A DNA stretch of 64,000 bases, taken from NCBI GenBank assembly GCA_020848275.1, contig JADLAK010000077.1:7606-71605 (forward strand), written 5' to 3'. Of this stretch, positions 8,370 to 38,818 are shown piece by piece. The notes under the pieces were generated by a model. It did not search any database and was not told the DNA's origin. It was given only the letters and a program-made list of their open reading frames with translations. Position 1 is the stretch's first letter, and every line of letters begins with the position of its first letter. The position numbers were made by a program, and so were the translations under genes. Origin of the DNA: Planctomycetota bacterium. Lineage in GTDB: Bacteria; Planctomycetota; UBA8742; UBA2392.

Positions 8370-9161
8370 TTAGTCCGGTTTGCGGTCGAGGGCTGCGATG
8401 CGTGCCAGCGCGGCATCGCGGACGTCGGCGCGTTCGTCCTGTGCGGCGGCGAGGCGGTACCACTTGATCGCCTGCGGAATATCTACCGGCGTGCCGCGGC
8501 CTTTTTCGTGGGCCTCCCCCAGCGCAAAGCACGAGGGCGCATGCCGCTTGGCCGCAGCCTTGCCAAACCATTCGACAGCCCCCGGCTCGTCCTTGTCGAT
8601 GCCATCGCCGATGGTCAGCATCACGCCCAGGTGATACTGCGCGTCCTCGAGCCCGCGCTCAGCGGCCGTGCGCAGCCAGGTCGCCGCAGTCTGCGGGTTC
8701 TGCTCGGTGCCGTAGCCCTCGAAGTAGCACAGGCCAAGCATGTACTGCGCGATTAGATCATCCTGTGCGGCGGCCTTGGACAGCCATTTGAAAGCCTCGG
8801 CCTTGTCGGGAAGCACACCTTTGCCCGACATGTACATCTGCGCGATCATCAGTTGGCCGTCGACGCTGCCGGCGTCGGCGGCGCGCAACAGCCAGCGCGC
8901 GGCCTCGGCGCTGTCGGCGGTCACGTAGGTGCCCTTGAGATACCAGATGCCGAGTTCGAGCGACGCGTCGACATGTCCGCCCTCGGCGGCCTTGTGCAGG
9001 AATTCCACCGCTCCGGCAAAGTCGTTCTTGTCGCGAAGCACCATCGCGCGGGTGTAGTTCTGTCCCGGCGTGAATTTCGAGACGTCCTCGGGCGCTTTTT
9101 GAGGCGTCGAGGCGCACGCCGTAAGCAGCAACACGCAAGTCAGGATGATTGTCAGGCGCAT
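8370..9161 (-). CDS. Sel1-repeat lipoprotein
   Basis: Lipobox LLTAC. Repeats of the type AQY.LG..Y..G.G...D...A..W...AA.QG. Confidence 0.9.
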   Translation of the reverse strand: MRLTIILTCVLLLTACASTPQKAPEDVSKFTPGQNYTRAMVLRDKNDFAGAVEFLHKAAEGGHVDASLELGIWYLKGTYVTADSAEAARWLLRAADAGSVDGQLMIAQMYMSGKGVLPDKAEAFKWLSKAAAQDDLIAQYMLGLCYFEGYGTEQNPQTAATWLRTAAERGLEDAQYHLGVMLTIGDGIDKDEPGAVEWFGKAAAKRHAPSCFALGEAHEKGRGTPVDIPQAIKWYRLAAAQDERADVRDAALARIAALDRKPD

Positions 9162-28397: not shown

Positions 28398-31300
28398 GTG
28401 AAATCGCTGCTCGCGAGCGTGTTTTGTTTTGCCTTCGCCGGCACCCTGGCCTTTGCGCCAAGGCCGTCCGCCGCCACACATCAGGCCCCGCTGCCGATTG
28501 ACGACCCTGCGCCCGTTGTCGAATGGCCGCGCGTCACCGACGTTGTCTGGGAAGAACACGGCGATGGCGCCTCGGGCCGCTGGTTGCCCCTGACCACGAG
28601 CGCGGTCGAGGTTATCGAAGGCGAGCCGCCGCGCATGATGTTTGCGCGCGACAGTAAACTGCGCGAGATCGGCCCTGTCGCTGTGCTCGACGAACCCGCC
28701 GAGCGCGCGCTGGGCGTGCGCTGGGATTACCAGCGGCCCGCGCTTGCGGCGATTGCCGAGCTCGCCCCCGGCATTCCTCGCGCCAAAGCGACGCGAAGCT
28801 GGCCCTGGCCCGACCAGACCATGCTGGAGCTTGGCCGGCCCGCGATTCCGCTGTTGGCCGATGCCGCCGCGGCCAATCGTATTGTCGCGGCGTTTCACGA
28901 TGACGCGCTGGTGCGCATTGCGCTGCGCAAACTGCTGCCTGAGGTCAAACTCGTCGGCGGGCAGGCAGGCGAGGGCGGCCGCGCGGTGATGATGATTTCG
29001 CTGGGCGGGCGCTTTGAGGCCGTCGAAAACGCGGTGCGAGAAGCCGGGCTTAACACGGACGTTCTCAATGCGCTGCGCAATTACCACAACGACGCCAACG
29101 CGCTGCTAAGCCGCGCTCTAGGCGCGCTCAGCGCGGCGTGGCCGCCGGACCTCAACGACGCCGGGAGCTGGAGTGAGGCTGAGCGCGCGCTGATCGGCAA
29201 CCTCGGGCTCGCCGCCGAGCGCTCGCTGGCGCTGCTGGCGGAGGCCAAGCCCGAGTTCGCGGCCAAGGTGGACTGGATGCTTGGAGAAATCCGCAAGCGC
29301 GAGGCGCAAGTGGTGCTGCGGACGTTTTCCGCCAAGGCCGAGCGCACGTTCAACCTCGACGACCAGGTTTCGGTCGTGTTGTGCCGCCAGGAGTTCGACG
29401 CCGCATTGGCGATTTTGCGTGCCGAGGGTGCGCGGCTGGCGGCCTCGGCGGGGGCGGCAGACCGGCTGCGAGGCGGCGAATTGAGCGCGGCGCTCGACGA
29501 CTTCTCGCGCCTGTACATTCAATCGCTGCAAAGCGCCGGCGGCGCCGTCGCCAACAACCTCGAGCGCTACAAGCGCGACCTTGCGGCGGGGCGCAATACA
29601 CGTGACGCGCTGCTTGCCGAGCTTTGCGCACTGCCCGCCGCGCTGAGCAACCCTTTTGGCTTCTGCGACGAGCTTGCCTCTCGGCGCACGCGCGCCACAG
29701 CTCTGGCGTCGAAGTGCCGCTGGCACCAGTCGCAGATTGAGCGGCGCGAGGTTGACCCGGCGGCGGGTTTCGACCCCGTGCGCGGGATCAACCCGCTCAA
29801 TGGCGGCCGCGCCTGGGACGTGCAGCACCGCAGTGAGGACATTGCCGCTGTGATGGAGTTGCGCGCCGCCAACGCCGACGCTCCGGTGCCCATTGCGCTG
29901 GAAGCGGGGCGCGCCTACGAGTTCAGTTACCGCGTCAAGGCGATCAACACCGCCGACGGCAAACGCGGCAACGCGCTTTCGGCGCAGGCGGCATGGATCG
30001 AGTTCATCCCGCTGGACGAACGCGGGCTGCCGGTTTTCGACCTGATTCACCCGCGCGCCGATATCGAGCCGGCCCCGTTTCGCTACTCGCGCAGCGGCCA
30101 ATGGACCGCGCCGCCGCACCTGGCTACTGATGGAGAGCCCGGCGGCTGGCTGAAGGTGCGTGTGGGGATTCCCGCGGTGCCGCGCAGCGTCACGGGGTTC
30201 ACGCTGCGCGTGGTGGTGGAGAACATCGTCGATGAGGGTGCGGTCTACTTCGACGACCTGGTGTTGAAGCGCGTGGCCGAGGGGTTTGCCGACAGCTTTG
30301 AAAGCGGCGAGGTTGACTCGCCGAATTGGACGCGGCTGGTCGACCGCGAGCGCGGCTACATGCCCTACGTGGGTTTGACGTTTGACGCCGGCCAACGCGT
30401 CGAGGGCGAGCGCAGCCTGTGCGTGCGGCCGCAAGGATTCAACTTCCAGATGACGACGGCGCGGACATTCACGCTGGCGGCTAACCGCGATTACGTGCTT
30501 GAGGGCGCGCTGCGTTGCGCCGCAATGGAGTCGCTGCGCGCGCGGCTGGAGATCGTCGGGCTGGACGGCAAAGCGATGCTGACGACCCCGTGGCGCGGCG
30601 ACATGGAATGGACCAGTGAGTGGCTCGACCTTTCCCATCTGGCGGCTGCCGGCGCCGACAGCGTGCGCGTGCGCCTGAATGTGTGGGGCCCGAGGCCGGC
30701 CTACAACGCGGCGGTGTGGGTCGACGCTCTGCGCATTGTTGAAACGCCGGCGCTGCGCTGGTCGCTCGACGATAAGCAGGGCGCCCCGCGCTTTTGCGTC
30801 GTCGAGCCGGGCAGGCGCTCGGCGTTGCGCCTGTGGTTCAAAGGTCTGCCGCGCGCGGCCTGCCGTTGCGAAGTGCAAGCAGGGGACCTGCCCGCGATCG
30901 CGGAAACCCTGGCGATCAAAGACGGCGAAGCGACGATGACGCCGCTTGACCTTGGGCCAGGCCTGGGGCTACGAACCGTGCGCGTGACGCTGACGCAGGA
31001 GGATCGCACCGAGCCGTTGCTTAAGCGGGACCTGCAACTGGCGCTGATATGCGCGGGCGGCAGTAGCGGCCTTGTGCTCGACAGCCGCTGGAACAACGCG
31101 GCGCTGGCGGAATTTGCGGGCGCGCTGCAGCCGCAATGGGTGATGTGCGAGTTGTGGGAGAGCGGCGGGCCGGGCCGGTTCACGACGGAGACGCGGATCG
31201 CCGAGGCGTTGCGGAAATCGTCGGCGCACAAGGTTGCGGTGCTGAACGTGCTGCCAGACGTCGAGGACGTCGGCGCGCCGATGGTCGAGTTATGCGCCGG

Positions 31301-32924
31301 GCGCGATGCACGCAAGCTGGCGCAGAATCTTTCCGCCGTCGTGAAAGCCTGCGACGGCGGCGCACAGGCCTTCCAGCTTGGCCCATGCTTCGGCCCGCAG
31401 GCCGCGGGCGTACCCGGCAACGGGCTGCCCGAATTGCTGAAAACCTTCCGCCGGGCGTTGCAGGAAGGCGGCGCGCCGGGCGCGGTGCAGGTGATTGCGC
31501 TGCCGCCGCAGGGGCTTGAGGGTTTTGCGCGCCTGTTTGCGGGCCGATGGGCCGAGGCCGTGCGCGCTGACGCGAGTTTACGCCGGGCGCTGAGCGCCGA
31601 CGAACTTGAGAAGCTGGCTGCGCTGGCGCCGGGGGCGATTTTTCTGCGCGAAGACGAACGCCTGAACCTCTGCGTGCCGCGGGCCGTCAGTGCCGCGGAT
31701 ATGGCGTTGGCGCTGGGCCCCTGGGCGGCGCGCATCGGCAGCTTCGAGCATCCGCTGGGCCGCGAAAACCTGCGCGAGCACGCGCTGGCGATGATCGCGG
31801 GCGGCGCGTTTGCCGGCGACGTCTCGCGGCAATTCGTGACTCTGCAATGCGGCGGCGACGTCGCGGACAAGCGCCTGCGCCTGGCGGCGCTTGGCTTTGG
31901 CACGGTGCTTTGCGAACACCGCAGCGACAGCGAAGACATCGGCGCGCTGATTGCGTGGCGCACGGCTGACCGCTTTTGCGCCGAAACCACGCCCGTGGTG
32001 GTGCACGGCCTGCCGGCTGAGGTCGGGGTCTGCGCGTTGCGCGGCAATGACGGCCTGCGGCTGGCGCTCACCGGCCGCGGTCGGCAAGTGTTGCCGCTGG
32101 GCAATGGCGTGCGCGCGCTCGATTTCGCCGGCAATGAAACGGCGTGCGCCGACGATGGCGCGGGCAACGTGACCGTCGAACTCAGCGATCAGCCGCTGAT
32201 GCTGCTGGGCGTTGACGGCGCGTTGATCGAGACGCTCGAGACCGTTGCGTGTACGCCCGCGCTGCGGGCCGAAACCCGCGCGCAGGAGCTGACGCTGTCG
32301 TTGCAAAATCGCTTCGGGGCCGCGCTCGACGTCACGGTGGAAGTGCTCTTGGCGGGCGAGATGGCCGAGCGGGCAAAGCTGACTGACGCCAAGGGCCGCC
32401 CGGCTCGCACCGGCGCCGCGGCGCTGAAGCTTGGCGCGGCCACGCTCAAGCCCGGCGCGTCGGGCGAATTCAAGCTGACGCTGCGGCCGCTGCCGGATTT
32501 CCCGGTGCACGGCGGCGCGCTTGCGCTGCGGCTGACGATGGCGGCGGGCGCGCGCCGCTACGTGATATTGCGCGAGATCGCGCCGACGGTGAACGCCGAA
32601 ATTCGCATCACCGACGTCAAGCTGGTCGCGGGCGCCACAGGCTATGAAGTCGTGATCACGGCGCAAAACGCAACGGCCGAAAGCGCCGACGTGCAGGTTG
32701 CCCTCGTCGTCAAGGGCCATCGCGGCCTGGCAAGACAAGCACGCCTGAAGCTGCGGGCCAACGCCTCGGGGGAAGTGCGGCTGGCTTGGCCCACGGGACC
32801 GGCCGGGCGAGCGACGGGCGCGGACGTGGATGTCGGGCTGTCGCAGTCGCCGGGTTTTCGCTTCGACAACGCCCGGTTGCGGCTGGGCGAAGACGCCGCG
32901 AACCTGGCCATCGCGCCTCGATAG
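28398..32924 (+). CDS. Large (about 1500 aa) exported hypothetical protein with CBM-like beta-sandwich segments
   Basis: Long GC3-rich ORF. Signal-like N-terminus from GTG 28398. CBM-like stretches (GRAYEFSYRVK, YFDDLVLKR, WVDALRIVE). Confidence 0.7.
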   Translation: MKSLLASVFCFAFAGTLAFAPRPSAATHQAPLPIDDPAPVVEWPRVTDVVWEEHGDGASGRWLPLTTSAVEVIEGEPPRMMFARDSKLREIGPVAVLDEPAERALGVRWDYQRPALAAIAELAPGIPRAKATRSWPWPDQTMLELGRPAIPLLADAAAANRIVAAFHDDALVRIALRKLLPEVKLVGGQAGEGGRAVMMISLGGRFEAVENAVREAGLNTDVLNALRNYHNDANALLSRALGALSAAWPPDLNDAGSWSEAERALIGNLGLAAERSLALLAEAKPEFAAKVDWMLGEIRKREAQVVLRTFSAKAERTFNLDDQVSVVLCRQEFDAALAILRAEGARLAASAGAADRLRGGELSAALDDFSRLYIQSLQSAGGAVANNLERYKRDLAAGRNTRDALLAELCALPAALSNPFGFCDELASRRTRATALASKCRWHQSQIERREVDPAAGFDPVRGINPLNGGRAWDVQHRSEDIAAVMELRAANADAPVPIALEAGRAYEFSYRVKAINTADGKRGNALSAQAAWIEFIPLDERGLPVFDLIHPRADIEPAPFRYSRSGQWTAPPHLATDGEPGGWLKVRVGIPAVPRSVTGFTLRVVVENIVDEGAVYFDDLVLKRVAEGFADSFESGEVDSPNWTRLVDRERGYMPYVGLTFDAGQRVEGERSLCVRPQGFNFQMTTARTFTLAANRDYVLEGALRCAAMESLRARLEIVGLDGKAMLTTPWRGDMEWTSEWLDLSHLAAAGADSVRVRLNVWGPRPAYNAAVWVDALRIVETPALRWSLDDKQGAPRFCVVEPGRRSALRLWFKGLPRAACRCEVQAGDLPAIAETLAIKDGEATMTPLDLGPGLGLRTVRVTLTQEDRTEPLLKRDLQLALICAGGSSGLVLDSRWNNAALAEFAGALQPQWVMCELWESGGPGRFTTETRIAEALRKSSAHKVAVLNVLPDVEDVGAPMVELCAGRDARKLAQNLSAVVKACDGGAQAFQLGPCFGPQAAGVPGNGLPELLKTFRRALQEGGAPGAVQVIALPPQGLEGFARLFAGRWAEAVRADASLRRALSADELEKLAALAPGAIFLREDERLNLCVPRAVSAADMALALGPWAARIGSFEHPLGRENLREHALAMIAGGAFAGDVSRQFVTLQCGGDVADKRLRLAALGFGTVLCEHRSDSEDIGALIAWRTADRFCAETTPVVVHGLPAEVGVCALRGNDGLRLALTGRGRQVLPLGNGVRALDFAGNETACADDGAGNVTVELSDQPLMLLGVDGALIETLETVACTPALRAETRAQELTLSLQNRFGAALDVTVEVLLAGEMAERAKLTDAKGRPARTGAAALKLGAATLKPGASGEFKLTLRPLPDFPVHGGALALRLTMAAGARRYVILREIAPTVNAEIRITDVKLVAGATGYEVVITAQNATAESADVQVALVVKGHRGLARQARLKLRANASGEVRLAWPTGPAGRATGADVDVGLSQSPGFRFDNARLRLGEDAANLAIAPR

Positions 32925-32967
32925 CGCTATGCAACGCGCCCGCCAGACTGCACACTATTAGCTGGGC

Positions 32968-34599
32968 ATGTCGCTTAAGATGAAAATTGCGCTGGGTGTG
33001 CTCGCCGCCACGGCCATTCTGGCCGTGGCGCTGGTGCTGCTTGGCGTGGACGCGAGCCAGCGCCTGAACCAAGCCGCGGAGTTGCAGCGCACTCGCCTGG
33101 AAACAGCAGCGCGAGCCCAGCGCGAGAAAATCGCCGAACAATTCAGCAAGGTCAGCGAAGAAACCCAGGCGCGGTCGATCAAGGCCGTCGAGGACCTGAT
33201 CCTGGCCTGGGTCAACCGCTACGCGGGTTATCCCAAAATCGACCTCGCCAACGCCCTGCGCGACGAAGGTAACGGCCTGCGCGAGGCGGCGATCATCGAC
33301 CGCAACGCCGACAACACCCTGTACATCCAGGTCTGCAAGGGTCCGAGCTCCGAGCTGGTGCTCGGCCGCGACGAACTCGCGGTCGCCACGCGCGTGTTTG
33401 ACACCGGCAAGCGCGAATTCCTGGGTGACCAGCTCTACCTGCCCTATTCGCCGGAAACCGACCAAATCGGCCGCCCCAAGACGATTTTGCGCCTGACGCT
33501 GAATATCCCGCAGATGCAGCGCGTCGAGCTGCCGGCGCCCGACGTGCCGCAGGCGATCTCGGCGGACCTGCGCCCGTTGGCGATCATCTCGTTCATCACA
33601 CTGGCGATCTGCATGCTCGCGGTGTTTTTGCTGCTGACCACGGCGTTGCGCAGGCTGGTGTTCCGGCCGTTGGATGACGTGCTCGAAAACTCCAAGCGCA
33701 TCGTCACGGGCAGCGAAGGCCTCGAGATCAAGGGCCTGGTGCAGGGCAGCGACGACATCGAGACGCTGGTGGCGGCCTTCAACGCGATGTTCAACGAACT
33801 CAAGGAATACCAGGCCGACCTCGAGGGCAAGGTCAAGAACGCCACGCGCACCATCGAACGTCAGCAGCAATCGCTGGTCGTCGCCCAGCGGCTGGCCGCG
33901 ACAGGCACGCTTGCGGCGGGGCTGGCGCACGAGATCAACAACCCGCTGTCGGGCATGCTGAATGCGGCGCGCAGGCTGAAGGCGCGCGAGGGCCTGGATG
34001 AACGCGCCAAGGATTACGTTGAGTTGATCGAGGATGGCCTGCGCCGCATCGAGGAACTGATGAAGCAGATCCTCGATTTCTCGCGCCGGCGCGAAATGAA
34101 GCCCGAACGTTTCGAGGCTGAACGCGTGGTCAAGCGTTCGCTGCCGCTGGTGCGCCACCGTCTCGAGAAGCGCGGGCTCAAGCTTGAGGAAGACCTGCGC
34201 CCCGAAGTGCCGATGATCTACGGCAACGAAGAAGAGCTTTCACAGGTGGTGATGAACCTGCTCATCAATGCGGCCGACGCGGCGCCCGACGGCGGCACCG
34301 TGCGCGTGGTCGTTTCGCCGGGCCCTCACGGCGGCGTTGAGATCGCGGTGGAGGACAGCGGCACGGGCGTTCCCGACGATTTGCGCGAGCGCATCTTCGA
34401 CCCGTTTTTTACCACTAAGGAGCCCGGCAAGGGCACGGGCCTGGGGCTTGCGATTGTGTTGACCATCGTCAGCAACCACGGCGGCACGGTGCGCGTCGAG
34501 CGCAGCGAGAAACTCGGCGGTGCGCGTTTTGTGATCGACCTGCCGTCGGCCGAACGCAGCGAAACCACACGACGCCTGGCGAGGCAGGACATCCAGTAA
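32968..34599 (+). CDS. Two-component sensor histidine kinase (TM-sensor-TM-HAMP-HisKA-HATPase)
   Basis: LAAGLAHEINNPL, QVVMNLLINAADA, EDSGTGVP, FDPFFTTK and GTGLGL. Confidence 0.93.
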   Translation: MSLKMKIALGVLAATAILAVALVLLGVDASQRLNQAAELQRTRLETAARAQREKIAEQFSKVSEETQARSIKAVEDLILAWVNRYAGYPKIDLANALRDEGNGLREAAIIDRNADNTLYIQVCKGPSSELVLGRDELAVATRVFDTGKREFLGDQLYLPYSPETDQIGRPKTILRLTLNIPQMQRVELPAPDVPQAISADLRPLAIISFITLAICMLAVFLLLTTALRRLVFRPLDDVLENSKRIVTGSEGLEIKGLVQGSDDIETLVAAFNAMFNELKEYQADLEGKVKNATRTIERQQQSLVVAQRLAATGTLAAGLAHEINNPLSGMLNAARRLKAREGLDERAKDYVELIEDGLRRIEELMKQILDFSRRREMKPERFEAERVVKRSLPLVRHRLEKRGLKLEEDLRPEVPMIYGNEEELSQVVMNLLINAADAAPDGGTVRVVVSPGPHGGVEIAVEDSGTGVPDDLRERIFDPFFTTKEPGKGTGLGLAIVLTIVSNHGGTVRVERSEKLGGARFVIDLPSAERSETTRRLARQDIQ

Positions 34600-34630
34600 A
34601 ACAAAGGGCGGCCATGCTTGGCCGCCCTTC
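34600..34630. terminator. Probable bidirectional terminator
   Basis: 11-bp stem AAGGGCGGCCA/TGGCCGCCCTT between convergent genes. Confidence 0.7.
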
Positions 34631-35023: not shown

Positions 35024-35312
35024 GACAATCCTTTCTTTGAGCATTTTCAGCTTGTTGTAGCGGATCTTGCTTGCGGCGAGCGTCGCATCTCTGCGTCAGC
35101 CTCACTTTGCGTGGCTTTCAGCCACGCGGTCGTTCGGCTTTCTTGACCTGATCGCTCGGCGCGGCGCAATATCGCGCTCCATCAATGCTTCAAAAGCTCT
35201 TTTCGGGGCGGGCTTTTCGGCGCTCTTGTCACGCTGGACTCGCGTGGCCCCTACTAGTTTGGCGGCAAAATTACCGCTGCAAACTAGACGCGCGTTGCGC
35301 CCGCCGGTTCCG

Positions 35313-35346
35313 AAAAAACGAAGCGGGACGGCGTTAGCCGTCCCGC
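35313..35346 (-). terminator. Rho-independent terminator after the Cys-rich HMA gene
   Basis: 10-bp stem GCGGGACGGC/GCCGTCCCGC. An A-run on the + strand gives a U-tract on the - strand. Confidence 0.8.
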
Positions 35347-35366
35347 GAAATCGTTTGAACGTTGAA

Positions 35367-36005
35367 TTAGTTGCTGGCCTTCTTGCCGCAGCCTTCGCAC
35401 TCCTTCTTCGGAGTTTCAGCGGAGGCTTCCTTCTTGGGCTCTTCCTTCTTTTCCTCGACCTTGACGACCTTGTCGCAGGAAGTCACGCCGAAGTCGGTAC
35501 CCTTGAGGGCCGTTTCGATGGCCGCCTTGTCGATGGTCTTGCCTTCGTTCATGGTGATGGTGACGGTGCCTTTTTCGACGTCCACGGCAACGTTGGCGAC
35601 GCCGTCGATCTTCTTGATCTTGGCCGCAACGCTCTTTCCGCAGCCGGCGCAGCACATCTCGGTGACAACAACGGTGTAGACGTCACCGGTCTTGGTTTCA
35701 GCTTTCACTTCCTTCTTGGCTTCGCAGCCCTTGCAGCCTGCACAATTCTTGCTGCCGCAGCCCTCACAGCCGCCAACGGTGCCTGCTTCCTTGGCGCCGG
35801 CGTCCTTGGTCTTGGTGCAGGTGCCGCCGCCACAACCGCCGCAGCCGCCACCACCGCACCCGCCGTCGTCCGCCTTGGTCGCGGCCTTCTTTTCGGTGCT
35901 TGCGCCGCAAGCGCGCTTACAGCCGCAACTGCCGGCAAACGCATCGCTGCCCATGAGCGCGGCGCCGGCAAACATCAGGAGAAACACAAAGAAAGTTGAG
36001 CGCAT
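35367..36005 (-). CDS. Exported HMA-domain protein with Cys/Gly-rich metallothionein-like N-terminal region
   Basis: Signal peptide, multiple CxC/CxxC clusters, YTVVVTEMCCAGCGKSVAAKIKKIDGVANV and C-terminal CEGC. Confidence 0.85.
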   Translation of the reverse strand: MRSTFFVFLLMFAGAALMGSDAFAGSCGCKRACGASTEKKAATKADDGGCGGGGCGGCGGGTCTKTKDAGAKEAGTVGGCEGCGSKNCAGCKGCEAKKEVKAETKTGDVYTVVVTEMCCAGCGKSVAAKIKKIDGVANVAVDVEKGTVTITMNEGKTIDKAAIETALKGTDFGVTSCDKVVKVEEKKEEPKKEASAETPKKECEGCGKKASN

Positions 36006-36188
36006 CTGCTATTCCCTTTTGGGTGGTTGAATGCTGGTTAGAACGAAAACCTTATCACGGTATGTATCTTTAGTGGAGCAGCTCGGTGCAAGATTACCGA
36101 CTATTTGCGGCGATGAAATCGACCCTGCAACCATCTATCAGATAAGCACTTACAGATGATTAGGTCTGCCTCAGCCTATCCCCGTTGT

Positions 36189-36629
36189 TCAACCCTTTGG
36201 TGGAGGTTGAGCAGCCTCTGGTTTTTCCTTTGTGGGCTCTTTCTTGGCCTCTTCCTTGACCTGCTCAAAGGACGTGACGCTGAGGCCGTCTTTGGAGTTC
36301 TTCACGGCTGTCTCTACGACCTCTTTGGTCAATGTCTTTCCGGGCTTGGTGACGATCACCGCGGTTTTGTCTTTCAATGTGACAACTACGCTGTTCACGC
36401 CATCCAGGCTGGTAAGGGCGGTCTTGGCCGCCTTGACTCACATACCTCAGGACATCCCGTCAATGATGACCTTGTAGGTTGTTGGCGCCGCCGCACCATC
36501 CGCTTTGGCAGTTTCAGGTTTGTCGGTCGCCTTTGGGTCACTTGCGGCGTCGCCGGCAAAAGCGACGTTAGCCCCGAGGAGAGCGATACCTAACGCGAGG
36601 ATAAAGATGAACTTCAGAAACGATGCCAT
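36189..36629 (-). CDS. Exported HMA-domain putative selenoprotein with two in-frame TGA (GMS-U-GM-U), 146 aa
   Basis: ORF-track fragments 36447-36629 and 36189-36398 are in one frame. Joined they read YKVIIDGMS*GM*VKAAKTALTSLDGVNSVVV, an HMA domain with TGA (36447-36449, 36438-36440) at both Cys positions. GGAGA RBS, signal peptide. Confidence 0.88.
36396..36434 (-). promoter_or_regulatory. Candidate bacterial SECIS hairpin pair
   Basis: mRNA after the UGAs: AAGGCGG-CCAAGA-CCGCC(C)UU, then CA-GCC-UGGAU-GGC-(G)UG. Confidence 0.55.
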
Positions 36630-36667
36630 GAGTTTTCTCCAACCGGTCTAACGTTAGAAACGAGGGG

Positions 36668-37114
36668 CTACTTCACGCCGTGTGACGCCTTCAGCGCCGC
36701 CCAGTCCCCATTGCGATCTTCCTTGAGGCTGACCAGTCCGTATCCGAAGTCGTCTTCAATACTTTTCTTGAGTGACTCGTACTCAAGCTTCGCCTTTTCG
36801 TTACCGTGCAAATAGATGTTGAATTCCTCGATGACGGTGAAAGCGTCGGTTATCCCTTCCAGGGATAGCAGGGCGTCAACGACGCCCGTGGCTCAGCCGC
36901 CTCAGTCCATGCCGGTGATGCCCAGGATATAGATGACATCCTTGCTTGTCGGCTTAGGCGGTTTGGGCAGGGGTTCGGGCGTCGGCTCGGGCTCGGGTTT
37001 TTCGACGCCGCCGCCTCCTTTGCGGAACTCGATGGGCGTCAGGTCTTCAACGGTGATCTGGCAGCCCGCGATCAGGAACGCGATTGAAGCCAGCAGCGAC
37101 AAACCGTGCTTCAT
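36668..37114 (-). CDS. HMA-domain lipoprotein, putative selenoprotein with two in-frame TGA (GMD-U-GG-U), 148 aa
   Basis: Lipobox LIAGC and Pro-rich linker, then IYILGITGMD*GG*ATGVVDALLSLEGITDA. TGA at 36902-36904 and 36893-36895. The frame stays open to TAG 36668-36670. AAGGA RBS. Confidence 0.88.
36851..36887 (-). promoter_or_regulatory. Candidate bacterial SECIS hairpin pair
   Basis: Two perfect 7-bp stems right after the UGAs: GGGCGUC-GUU-GACGCCC and UAUCCCU-GGA-AGGGAUA. Confidence 0.65.
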
Positions 37115-37126
37115 GGCCGGATTCCT

Positions 37127-38002
37127 TTAAAAGACGTACGAGAACATAAGCATGGCTTCGCCCTCGTGCACGAACTGCTTGCCGAAGTGATAGTGGTAAA
37201 GCGGCAGCATCACGCCGAATTTCACCTCGAAATCGTTGTTGATGTTCATCTGGAAGCCAATGGCCGCCTCAACTTCATAAAAGCCGCTGTTTTCATCGCG
37301 ATCGCCGTCCATCTCGCCCTGGGCGCGCGCTTCAAAATCCATTTCAACGAGCAGGATCATGTCGAAGTCGCGGTAGTTCTTGATCTCCCACAGACGATGG
37401 CCATAGGCCATGTGGGTCTTGAACCCTGGCCCCTCGCCGGAATCGGAGCGGCGCGTCGACCCATAACCTGCCAGGTCTATCCAGAAATAGTGGCGTGTAG
37501 TGCTGGTTTGCGCGGTCAGGCCTCCCATGAACGTAAAGGTTTCGTCGCCAAGGGAAGGGCCGTCGACGCGTTTTTTTGCGGTAGGCAGTTCGGCCCGGAC
37601 AAACCAGCCCGCCTGCGAACTTCCGCCGGGGTATGGATGGTAAAGGAAGCGGTACTTGGCGCTGATCTCGGCGTTGCCCGGCCCGTAGTAACTTTCGCGA
37701 TCGTCTTTGGACCACTCAGATACGTAAGTGACAGGAAACTCAGCCTTGAGCGACCAGTCGCGCGAAATGCCCCAAGTAAAACCCGGCATGACCATGTGCT
37801 CAAATCGCCGCAGGTCACGCGGGTTTTCGTCGGGATTGTCGCCGCTGAAAAAGCGATAGGAGTACTCGAACATCTGCTCGACTTCGACCTCGAAGCCGTT
37901 GGTCCAGATCGTGCGCGGCGTCAGCCCAAACATGGTCTCGTGCGCATACGCGCCGCCCGCAAAGATCGCCAGCAAAAGCCCGATAATGCTCAGTTGTTTC
38001 AC
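37127..38002 (-). CDS. Putative outer-membrane beta-barrel ('transporter'-like) protein
   Basis: GTG start with AAGG RBS, signal peptide (AYA|HETMF), alternating amphipathic beta-strand pattern and C-terminal Phe (LMFSYVF). Confidence 0.7.
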   Translation of the reverse strand: MKQLSIIGLLLAIFAGGAYAHETMFGLTPRTIWTNGFEVEVEQMFEYSYRFFSGDNPDENPRDLRRFEHMVMPGFTWGISRDWSLKAEFPVTYVSEWSKDDRESYYGPGNAEISAKYRFLYHPYPGGSSQAGWFVRAELPTAKKRVDGPSLGDETFTFMGGLTAQTSTTRHYFWIDLAGYGSTRRSDSGEGPGFKTHMAYGHRLWEIKNYRDFDMILLVEMDFEARAQGEMDGDRDENSGFYEVEAAIGFQMNINNDFEVKFGVMLPLYHYHFGKQFVHEGEAMLMFSYVF

Positions 38003-38016
38003 GCGGCACCTTTTCC

Positions 38017-38478
38017 TTACTTCGACCTTGCACCGACCGTCTTGCGCACTCCCTTGGGGTGATCCTCGCAACACGACTTGCCCTCAAGGTCCTGAAGGAT
38101 ATTGCAGTCTTTGACGCTCGCCGCGCCGCCGGGGCAGTGCTCCACCAGTTCCTTCAAGTGATTGCGCATCTGGTGCAGCAGCGCAATCTTGCCCTCGATC
38201 TCGGCCAGCTTGCGTGCGGCCACTTCACTGATGTCGCCGCAGGTCGCGATGTTCGAGTCGCGCAGGAAAAGCAGTTCGTGGATTTCCTTGAGTGTGAAGC
38301 CGACGTCCTTGGAGCGCTGGATGAACCGCAGGCGCTCGGCGTCATGTTCGCTGTACAGGCGGTGGCCGCCCGAGGTGCGCTCGGGCTTGGGCAGCAAGCC
38401 TTCGCGCTCGTAGAAACGAACGGTTTCAATGTGGACTCCCGCGGCGGTGGCAAGCTTGCTGACGGTCATGGCGTTCAT
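38017..38478 (-). CDS. merR: MerR-family metal-responsive regulator (three-Cys MerR/ZntR/CadR type)
   Basis: HTH GVHIETVRFYEREGLL. Cys80, Cys115 and Cys125 match the MerR Cys82/117/126 pattern. Extra CCEDH tail. Confidence 0.88.
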   Translation of the reverse strand: MNAMTVSKLATAAGVHIETVRFYEREGLLPKPERTSGGHRLYSEHDAERLRFIQRSKDVGFTLKEIHELLFLRDSNIATCGDISEVAARKLAEIEGKIALLHQMRNHLKELVEHCPGGAASVKDCNILQDLEGKSCCEDHPKGVRKTVGARSK

Positions 38479-38496
38479 GGCGAACCTCGTATGAAA

Positions 38497-38527
38497 AGTC
38501 TATCTCCGTAGCTTACTACGGGTTCAA
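38497..38527 (-). promoter_or_regulatory. mer-type promoter/operator: -35 TTGAAC, 19-bp spacer containing dyad CCGTAG-TAAG-CTACGG, -10 TAGACT
   Basis: The minus strand reads TTGAAC CCGTAGTAAGCTACGGAGA TAGACT. Classical PmerT is TTGACT CCGTACATGAGTACGGAAG TAAGGT (same spacer length and dyad). Confidence 0.88.
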
Positions 38528-38564
38528 GTGGAATACACGGAAGTCGAAATTGAGGAAGCATCAT

Positions 38565-38634
38565 GTGGCTTGGGCACCCCCGCCCAAGCGAAACGTGATT
38601 GGCGCCTCGGCATAGGCGAGGGCGCCCATGCCAC
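38565..38634. repeat. REP-like doublet (GTGGC[A/T]TGGGC...GCCCATGCCAC family)
   Basis: gtggcttgggcacccccgcccaagc ... ggcgagggcgcccatgccac. A related element lies at 58108-58178. Confidence 0.45.
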
Positions 38635-38742: not shown

Positions 38743-38818
38743 GGTCAGGTAGCTCAGTTGGTAGAGCAGCGCATTGAAAATGCGCGGGTCGCTGGTTCAA
38801 GTCCAGTCCTGACCACCA
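38743..38818 (+). tRNA. tRNA-Phe(GAA)
   Basis: Acceptor stem GGTCAGG/CCTGACC with ACCA end, D-arm AGCTCAGTTGGTAGAGC, anticodon arm GCGCA-TTGAAAA-TGCGC and T-loop GGTTCAAGTCC. 76 nt. Confidence 0.97.

Follow-up and report, generated by a model that had tools for sequence, protein, structure and literature searches.

In gram-positive mercury resistance (mer) operons such as those of Bacillus RC607 and Staphylococcus aureus pI258, merR is the first gene. The GolS regulon of Salmonella comprises a co-linear golT-golS pair, the HMA chaperone gene golB and the RND pump genes gesABC. MerR-type promoters are recognizable by a spacer of 19-20 bp, instead of the usual 16-18 bp, and by a dyad-symmetric operator within that spacer. 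In Tn501 the operator, merO, reads CCGTACATGAGTACGG from -31 to -16 and belongs to a promoter with the -35 hexamer TTGACT, the -10 hexamer TAAGGT and a 19-bp spacer (PMC11049809, PMC3431237). ZntR, CadR and PbrR are three-Cys divalent sensors that activate a P1B ATPase gene from a promoter with a 19-20-bp spacer (PMC3431237), and the residue at the position of CueR Ser77 sets the selectivity for +1 versus +2 ions (PMC9909328). Here we analyze a promoter at positions 38,497 to 38,527 of a 64,000-nucleotide stretch of DNA (the window) from a Planctomycetota bacterium (assembly GCA_020848275.1, contig JADLAK010000077.1). It reads into a gene for a MerR-family regulator. We consider it likely that this is an autoregulated, MerR-type activator promoter, that its regulator represents a new clade of three-Cys sensors, and that it controls an efflux/sequestration regulon.

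The promoter and its operator

The initial annotation, made from the letters of the window, had described a TTGAAC-19 bp-TAGACT promoter with the dyad CCGTAG-N4-CTACGG abutting the -35 hexamer, facing into merR and resembling PmerT in design. The description is exact on the minus strand (38527..38497), where the following elements can be read.

38522..38527, minus strand: -35 hexamer TTGAAC, identical as TTGAA(C/T) in the three closest relatives
38503-38521, minus strand: spacer of 19 nt, CCGTAGTAAGCTACGGAGA
38506..38521, minus strand: operator dyad CCGTAG-TAAG-CTACGG, a perfect 6-4-6 inverted repeat at spacer positions 1-16
38497..38502, minus strand: -10 hexamer TAGACT, of which T, A and the final T are kept in relatives
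38479..38496, minus strand: short leader, with a predicted transcription start at about 38490-38492
38485-38488, minus strand: Shine-Dalgarno sequence GAGG, a GGAGG-like site being kept in relatives
38017..38478, minus strand: MerR-family three-Cys metal-sensor gene, 153 aa, with Pfam MerR_1, MerR-DNA-bind and MerR matches

The dyad begins immediately 3' of the -35 hexamer, with no gap, and lies within a spacer of 19 bp, the length found in MerR-type promoters. A sigma-70 scan returned no promoter at the site, an uninformative result because the scan admits only spacers of 16-18 bp. The orientation is also as first described: the promoter reads into the 153-aa regulator gene, whose ATG (38478) stands 18 nt past the -10 hexamer, and the neighbor on the other side is a tRNA-Phe(GAA) gene (38743-38818, plus strand) that is divergent from the operon. 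With the promoter thus pointing at the gene of its own regulator, the latter would be autoregulated; since that gene is the first of its unit, induction would also raise the level of the regulator.

The likeness to PmerT stands as well. As in Tn501 and Tn21, the spacer is 19 bp and the dyad follows directly on the -35 hexamer, in the same position relative to it. CCGTA and TACGG pentamers enclose six intervening bases in both (CCGTAGTAAGCTACGG here, CCGTACATGAGTACGG in Tn501; PMC11049809), and five of the six bases of each half-site are shared, the innermost being a G/C swap. Unlike the promoter of Tn501 and Tn21, which reads away from merR, the one described here reads into its regulator gene; merT, merA and merB are absent, and the targets are efflux genes. 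The co-linear layout was compared at the outset with gram-positive mer operons, and indeed the regulator gene comes first, with one MerR-type promoter serving an autoregulated regulator and the structural genes behind it. The same layout is known from golTS, so that it is not new in itself. What differs from the gram-positive operons is the gene content (a beta-barrel and exported HMA proteins or selenoproteins in place of merT, merP, merA and merB), the planctomycete host, and the presence of further operators before an ATPase gene and an RND pump operon. The promoter itself is of textbook MerR design and calls for no new mechanism.

Conservation was assessed in 23 genomes of the same GTDB family, among them the 4.41-Mb genome to which the window belongs. 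In this genome and its three closest relatives the block TTGAA(C/T)CCGTAGTAA(G/A)CTAC(G/A)G is invariant, amid flanks that cannot be aligned; on this alignment the -35/dyad block is a clean phylogenetic footprint. The -10 hexamers of the three relatives are TAACTT, TACTGT and TATTCT, with T, A and the final T invariant. In genera g1, g7 and g4 the regulator gene is likewise preceded by the 19-bp design. The operator is thus kept with the regulator and its targets in related genomes, with an altered geometry at the regulator gene in g3, g5 and g6.

From base composition about 0.5 exact copies of the dyad are expected in the genome; there are two, and both stand in the same promoter geometry. 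A looser pattern for MerR-type promoters, in which T[TG]GA[AC]N and TANNNT flank 19 bp with a perfect inverted repeat whose arms have 6 bp or more, matched five sites, two of which are this dyad, as compared with 0-2 sites in whole-genome shuffles. Scanning for the dyad alone with up to two mismatches gave 168 matches, mostly random, and such a scan is useless without the promoter geometry. In public genomes the exact 22-nt combination of -35 hexamer and dyad was found only in two Planctomycetota metagenome-assembled genomes (PLA1 and Bin_91R) and in one Nanohaloarchaea match, which we take as chance.

Could the dyad lack a regulatory role, being a palindrome that arose by chance, an RNA hairpin or a terminator? 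This is barely credible. The small size of the element, with arms of 6 bp, is the only point in its favor. Against it stand the twofold occurrence of the exact dyad in one and the same promoter geometry, and the result of a stricter scan (given in the next section) whose 21 matches, against one in the control, all lie ahead of the same three operons. What is conserved is moreover the sequence itself, not merely the pairing. An RNA hairpin or terminator was considered separately and is ruled out, given that the dyad is not followed by a T-run, that its sequence is what has been kept, and that relatives often have a broken innermost pair. On the strength of the comparative evidence, the promoter is very probably real, metal-switched and of the MerR type.

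Three promoters and one regulator

The initial annotation had proposed a genome scan for more copies of the dyad, and such copies exist. The strict operator pattern GAABCCGKAGNNNNCTMCGG gave 21 matches in the 23 family genomes; the reversed pattern, used as a control, gave one. Fourteen of the matches lie before a P1B ATPase gene or a copZ-like leader gene, five before the regulator operon and two before an RND operon. In the genome of the window the two further promoters and their genes are as follows.

C37:6252-6282, minus strand: second promoter, TGGAAG-CCGTAGTTTGCTACGGAGT-TACAAT-acttgc-ATG, with the exact dyad at C37:6261-6276 and a 19-bp spacer
C37 3936-6245, minus strand: P1B ATPase gene behind the second promoter, 769 aa, with an N-terminal GMTCAHC domain
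C20:8828-8858, minus strand: third promoter, TGGAAC-TCGTACCGTGCTACGACGT-TATATA-agccat-ATG, with a 19-bp spacer and the dyad variant TCGTA-N6-TACGA
C20:1164-8858, minus strand: third operon, with genes for a small protein of 129 aa rich in His and Cys, a CzcC-like outer-membrane factor, a membrane-fusion protein, an RND pump of the CusA/CzcA family and two His-rich lipoproteins (GHKDHGHGDEHG...)

The dyad at C20 has three mismatches, which is why the scan with up to two mismatches missed it. At both C37 and C20 the ATG stands 6 nt past the -10 hexamer, so the mRNAs are probably leaderless. Both promoters have counterparts in relatives. At about 19 of 22 loci the ATPase orthologue is preceded by TGGAAT-CCGGAGTTAACTACGG-NGT-TGTTAT or something close to it, always with a 19-bp spacer. 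Among the RND operons of relatives, at least 12 of 22 have a dyad of the CCGTAG type and, 19 bp apart, the hexamers TTGAAC or TTGCAC and TAnnnT. The regulator encoded in the window is the only metal-type MerR paralogue in its genome; one regulator therefore very probably serves all three promoters. That it also activates those at C37 and C20 is likewise very probable from the shared operator design. By genome comparison the three promoters form an efflux/sequestration regulon that is conserved in a family of uncultured Planctomycetota without merA. The promoter analyzed here thereby links three things in one conserved regulon: the operon of the regulator, the barrel and proteins with paired selenocysteines (UxxU); an ATPase with an MxxSD motif; and an RND pump with His-rich partners.

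A further element lies on C20 between an MBL-fold gene and the RND promoter (~8900-8960). It is an AT-rich near-palindrome, TATATAACCATATAGCTATATAGTTAT, and may be the operator of another regulator.

That the regulator binds the operator and activates by distorting the DNA, where transcription starts and which metal induces it are points that we infer; the steps of the mechanism are drawn from the MerR family (PMC3431237, PMC9909328, PMC11049809). A dimer of the regulator would sit on CCGTAG-N4-CTACGG inside the over-long 19-bp spacer, as in MerR, CueR, ZntR and PbrR, and in its metal-free form would keep the promoter closed. A thiophilic metal would be bound by Cys80' of one subunit together with Cys115 and Cys125 of the other. 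The metal-bound dimer would then untwist (under-wind) the spacer, so that the -35 and -10 hexamers align for RNA polymerase. For PmerT and PpbrA it has been shown that a spacer shortened by 1-2 bp gives constitutive activity, in line with this model (PMC3431237).

Several points weigh against this reading. That sigma-70 consensus rules hold for Planctomycetota is an assumption. The dyad of genus g3, and of some relatives besides, abuts the ribosome site, with no -10 hexamer at the canonical distance. At the g3 loci L040, L041, L045, L049 and L052 the dyad has the form CCG-TATAAA-GGTACGG and lies against a GGAG ribosome site, with a conserved xTGAAC 19 nt before the TATAAA at the dyad center; from this arrangement, the regulator operon may be repressed rather than activated in g3-type genomes, and the promoter geometry is not universal. 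The dyad is missing ahead of the regulator gene in two of three loci of genus g6. Finally, the C20 operator is off consensus at 3 of 12 positions and was assigned by orthology and geometry only.

The overlap of the g3 dyad with TATAAA and its position against the ribosome site would suit an element that is a repressor site only, mediating negative autoregulation. Alternatively, the 19-bp promoter might not be real and the operon might be read from an upstream start; in relatives a tRNA-Phe gene lies upstream and co-directional, and read-through from it is conceivable there. We regard both possibilities as improbable. In the genome of the window the tRNA-Phe gene is divergent, which leaves no co-directional gene upstream. 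The -35 hexamer and the T-A...T of the -10 hexamer are conserved along with the dyad, which sits in the spacer and not over the -10 hexamer or the start site. At C37 and C20 the ATG follows so closely on the -10 hexamer that there is no room for a promoter downstream of the dyad. Activation from the 19-bp promoter is thus the reading that we prefer. An extra CCGTAG/CCGTAT half-site was observed ahead of the g3 dyad in L045, L049 and L052.

The regulator and its metal

The regulator has the N-terminal winged helix-turn-helix, dimerization helix and C-terminal Cys loop of the MerR family, as indicated by its Pfam matches and by the alignment of residues 4-136 to the structures of MerR, CadR and CueR. 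The initial annotation pointed out a three-Cys pattern (C80/C115/C125) in place of the CueR Ser, and this is borne out. The three residues align with the Hg ligands C79/C114/C123 of Bacillus MerR (4ua1), which is the top PDB match (96.8 bits), and with the three Hg-ligand cysteines of Tn501 MerR (C82, C117, C126). The Cys loop is one residue longer than in Bacillus MerR and in the Tn501/Tn21 protein, and is variable within the clade. Comparison with the NCBIfam models of the family gave the following scores.

MerR (TIGR02051): 131.8 bits, cut-off 150.85
ZntR (NF007069): 128.8, cut-off 143
ZntR (TIGR02043): 119.3, cut-off 167.95
CadR-PbrR (TIGR02047): 108.3, cut-off 151.45
CueR (TIGR02044): 107.2, cut-off 147.4
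NF010315: 93, cut-off 261

The regulator thus falls under the curated cut-off of every model, with MerR on top and ZntR a near tie. Pairwise identities are 40.5% to Bacillus MerR, 40.0% to Tn501 MerR, 39.1% to ZntR, 38.8% to CadR and 34.3% to CueR; the top plasmid matches, at 46-47% identity, are annotated as Hg(II)-responsive MerR. The two halves of the protein behave differently. The DNA-binding half is nearest to MerR (54-56% identity, versus 36-41% for CueR and ZntR; 49-56% in the comparison with Tn501/Tn21), and the dimerization helix plus loop is equally far from MerR, CadR, ZntR and CueR (29-36%). The MerR-leaning DNA-binding half fits the mer-like half-site and says nothing about the metal.

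A phylogeny had been proposed as a check on the mercury assignment. In a maximum-likelihood tree 21 planctomycete regulators form a clade of their own (99/96), outside both the Tn501/pMOL30 MerR clade (100/98) and the separate Bacillus MerR clade (96/86), with the deeper nodes unresolved. As judged by this tree, the regulator is a member of a new clade of planctomycete metal sensors with three cysteines. It has orthologues of 47-67% identity in 21 of 22 family genomes, and the three cysteines are invariant across them. Their loops take the form C-x9-C, C-x8-CC or, with a His in front, C-x7-C, which is the loop found in most. The tail of the regulator reads S-C136-C137-E-D-H (...GKSCCEDHPKG...) and resembles the CCHH tail of E. 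coli CueR. It had been suggested that this extra tail might broaden specificity; the tail is certainly present, but only about 6 of the 21 orthologues have the C-terminal CC motif, and it is an accessory feature.

We also tried to assign the metal by homology and had to reject this approach, for the NCBIfam models, the PDB matches, the pairwise and per-domain identities and the tree fit no characterized specificity group.

Hg(II) had been named as the most likely inducer. Applied to the whole system, this would mean a genuine merA-independent mercury system, in which the regulator is an Hg(II)-specific MerR orthologue and the HMA/UxxU proteins are MerP-like Hg(II) binders. Such a system is rather unlikely in our estimation, despite a number of points in its favor. 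MerR is the top NCBIfam model and Bacillus MerR the top solved structure; the plasmid matches carry an Hg(II)-responsive annotation; the DNA-binding half is nearest to MerR; and the three cysteines are invariant. The exported HMA proteins of the operon are MerP-like, with weak TIGR02052 matches. Selenolates bind Hg very tightly. The half-site begins CCGTA as in merO (PMC11049809). On the other side, the MerR score is under its cut-off and nearly tied with that of ZntR, the metal-binding half is equidistant from four specificities, the clade lies outside both MerR clades, and the spacing of the loop cysteines varies within it (x7, x8, x9). No MerA scored above its cut-off in any of the 23 family genomes, and MerT had no match in the genome of the window. 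Of the mer structural genes (merT, merP and merA, with or without merB) the operator therefore controls at most MerP-like HMA genes. Its two other targets are a P1B ATPase that scores as Cu-type and an RND pump of the CusA/CzcA kind whose accessory proteins are His-rich; neither is known as a target of MerR. These results do not sustain the choice of Hg(II) as the leading candidate. They also carry a warning for annotation: a merR-like gene with a mer-like operator does not imply a mercury operon.

With an efflux ATPase and an RND operon as its targets, the regulon is built in the manner of those of CueR, GolS or ZntR and not in that of mer. In particular, the make-up of the regulon mirrors that of GolS in Salmonella, with one sensor acting on a P1B ATPase, HMA chaperones and an RND pump through promoters with 19-bp spacers, and with the regulator co-transcribed with a target as in golTS. 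Is the regulator then a sensor of Cu(I), Ag(I) or Au(I), functionally analogous to CueR and GolS, and the regulon one for copper, silver or gold export? The ATPase gives some support to this idea: its best NCBIfam model is the Cu-type TIGR01511 (492.6, cut-off 397, versus 368.9 for the Cd-type), and it has the motifs CPC and N-x6-YN-x4-P. The C-x7-C loop of most orthologues of the regulator is that of CueR, and CC or CC(H) tails like CCHH occur in several. No CsoR was found in the genome, which also lacks any other MerR-type metal sensor.

We nevertheless think a Cu/Ag/Au sensor unlikely. The selectivity residue is Cys in 21 of 21 orthologues, whereas +1 sensors such as CueR and GolS are marked by Ser77 (PMC9909328). 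The motif in transmembrane helix 6 (TM6) of the ATPase, AMVLSDGSV, is of the type MxxSD, not the Cu(I) signature MxxSS. This holds for all operator-linked orthologues, and each genome has a separate MxxSS paralogue elsewhere (in that of the window, at C6:36872-38809, without an N-terminal HMA domain). The RND pump, whose TM4 reads AIGELVDDAIIDVEN, is about equally near to CusA (411 bits) and ZneA (386.5). It lacks the CusA Met573/623/672 cluster, the corresponding positions aligning to F, S and H, and its partner proteins are His-rich. The half-site is mer-like and not CCTTCC, and the HMA chaperones, unlike those of the GolS and CueR regulons, are exported, two of them with selenocysteine pairs.

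By the Ser/Cys rule, Cys80 speaks for a +2 ion (PMC9909328). A Cys at the N-terminal end of the dimerization helix together with two loop cysteines is also what distinguishes ZntR and CadR-PbrR, and the regulator shares with ZntR and CadR the P1B ATPase as target and 39% identity to each. It differs from ZntR, CadR and PbrR in that it scores under the cut-off of all their NCBIfam models and has different operator half-sites, and in that its ATPase has a TM5 motif of the P1B-1 type, not the P1B-2 signature. Weighing these points, we favor, by a modest balance of probability, a divalent metal of soft or borderline character (Cd, Zn, Pb or Hg) as the most likely class of inducer. Hg alone appears doubtful, as do Cu, Ag or Au, and what probability remains goes to other inducers.

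The operon behind the promoter

The genes that follow the regulator gene in the window, and the probable end of the transcription unit, are listed below.

37127..38002, minus strand: outer-membrane 12-stranded beta-barrel gene with a GTG start and a signal peptide, 14 bp past the regulator stop
36668..37114, minus strand: HMA-domain lipoprotein gene, GMD-U-GG-U (two in-frame TGA codons), after a 12-bp gap
36189..36629, minus strand: exported HMA-domain protein gene, GMS-U-GM-U (TGA codons), after a 38-bp gap
35367..36005, minus strand: gene for an exported HMA protein rich in Cys and Gly, separated by a gap of 183 bp
35323..35346, minus strand: intrinsic terminator from a terminator scan, a 10-bp GC-rich stem and a T-run, the probable end of the unit

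The terminator is the only strong one on the minus strand between 38478 and 35323. The regulator gene would accordingly be co-transcribed with the barrel gene and two or three exported HMA genes, two of which encode UxxU sites. The order regulator-barrel-HMA lipoprotein-HMA protein is preserved in 18 of the 20 family loci examined.

No family of Pfam or NCBIfam matches the barrel protein above threshold. Its AlphaFold model (pLDDT 77.7, pTM 0.74) is nearest in fold to FapF and the COG4313 channel 4rl8 (template-modeling scores 0.68-0.74). The mature N-terminus, AH(E/N)T(M/L)FG..PR(T/S)IW, is invariant, and the protein has many invariant His, Asp and Glu residues.

In the lipoprotein both TGA codons of the UxxU motif (GMDUGxU or GIDUGGU) are present in 18 of 18 orthologues. 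Orthologues of the second HMA protein have UxxU, UxxC or CxxC at the motif, a variation that, on alignment, makes these positions textbook Cys/Sec pairs. The genome has selA and tRNA-Sec. A family of metal-binding (seleno)proteins, NF041115 ('UxxU_metal_bind'), is listed in PMC13188914. The HMA-fold proteins of the operon carry UxxU as that family does, but they score 20 and 44 bits against its cut-off of 95 and so are relatives, not members. The review describes no regulator for the UxxU_metal_bind family and does not mention 'MerR' (PMC13188914); our literature search found no paper that connects UxxU proteins with regulation of the MerR type or reports a regulon of this kind from Planctomycetes. 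The promoter is a handle on the question of which metal double-selenocysteine HMA proteins are made against.

One answer, which we put forward tentatively and hold to be possible though far from assured, is that the planctomycete sensor clade commands an undescribed, merA-independent defence against a soft metal, Hg(II) or Cd(II), through its three mer-like operators. The MxxSD P1B ATPase and the His-rich HME-RND (heavy metal efflux RND) pump would expel the metal from cytoplasm and periplasm, the exported HMA proteins would capture it at diselenolate (UxxU) sites, and the 12-stranded outer-membrane channel would complete the route. If this is true, a bacterial metal-resistance regulon would include selenium as a dedicated component whose use is regulated.

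The G+C content at 35200-38600 is 53-59%, lower than that of the genome (62%) and of the stretch to the left (64-71% at 30000-34600). Since the operon is conserved across the family, the low value is more likely a compositional property of these genes than a mark of recent transfer.

A tRNA-Phe(GAA) gene is the upstream neighbor of the operon in several genera (L036, 9171-9246; L038, 9303-9378; L054, 825-900). It is co-directional with the operon in these relatives and inverted in the genome of the window, which suggests a small local inversion.

Co-linear merR-like genes with near-canonical mer operators also occur in other genomes of the phylum, at L027 (G050:C232), L032 (G025:C231) and L034 (G039:C36). 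The L027 operator reads TTGACT-CCGTACATGGGTACAGG. At L027 and L032 the next gene encodes a small protein with CPLTGE..P..CCP motifs. L032 and L034 have a MerT-like/HMA fusion, and that of L034, which ends at GMT-stop, is possibly the known MerT/CopZ fusion selenoprotein (NF045683).

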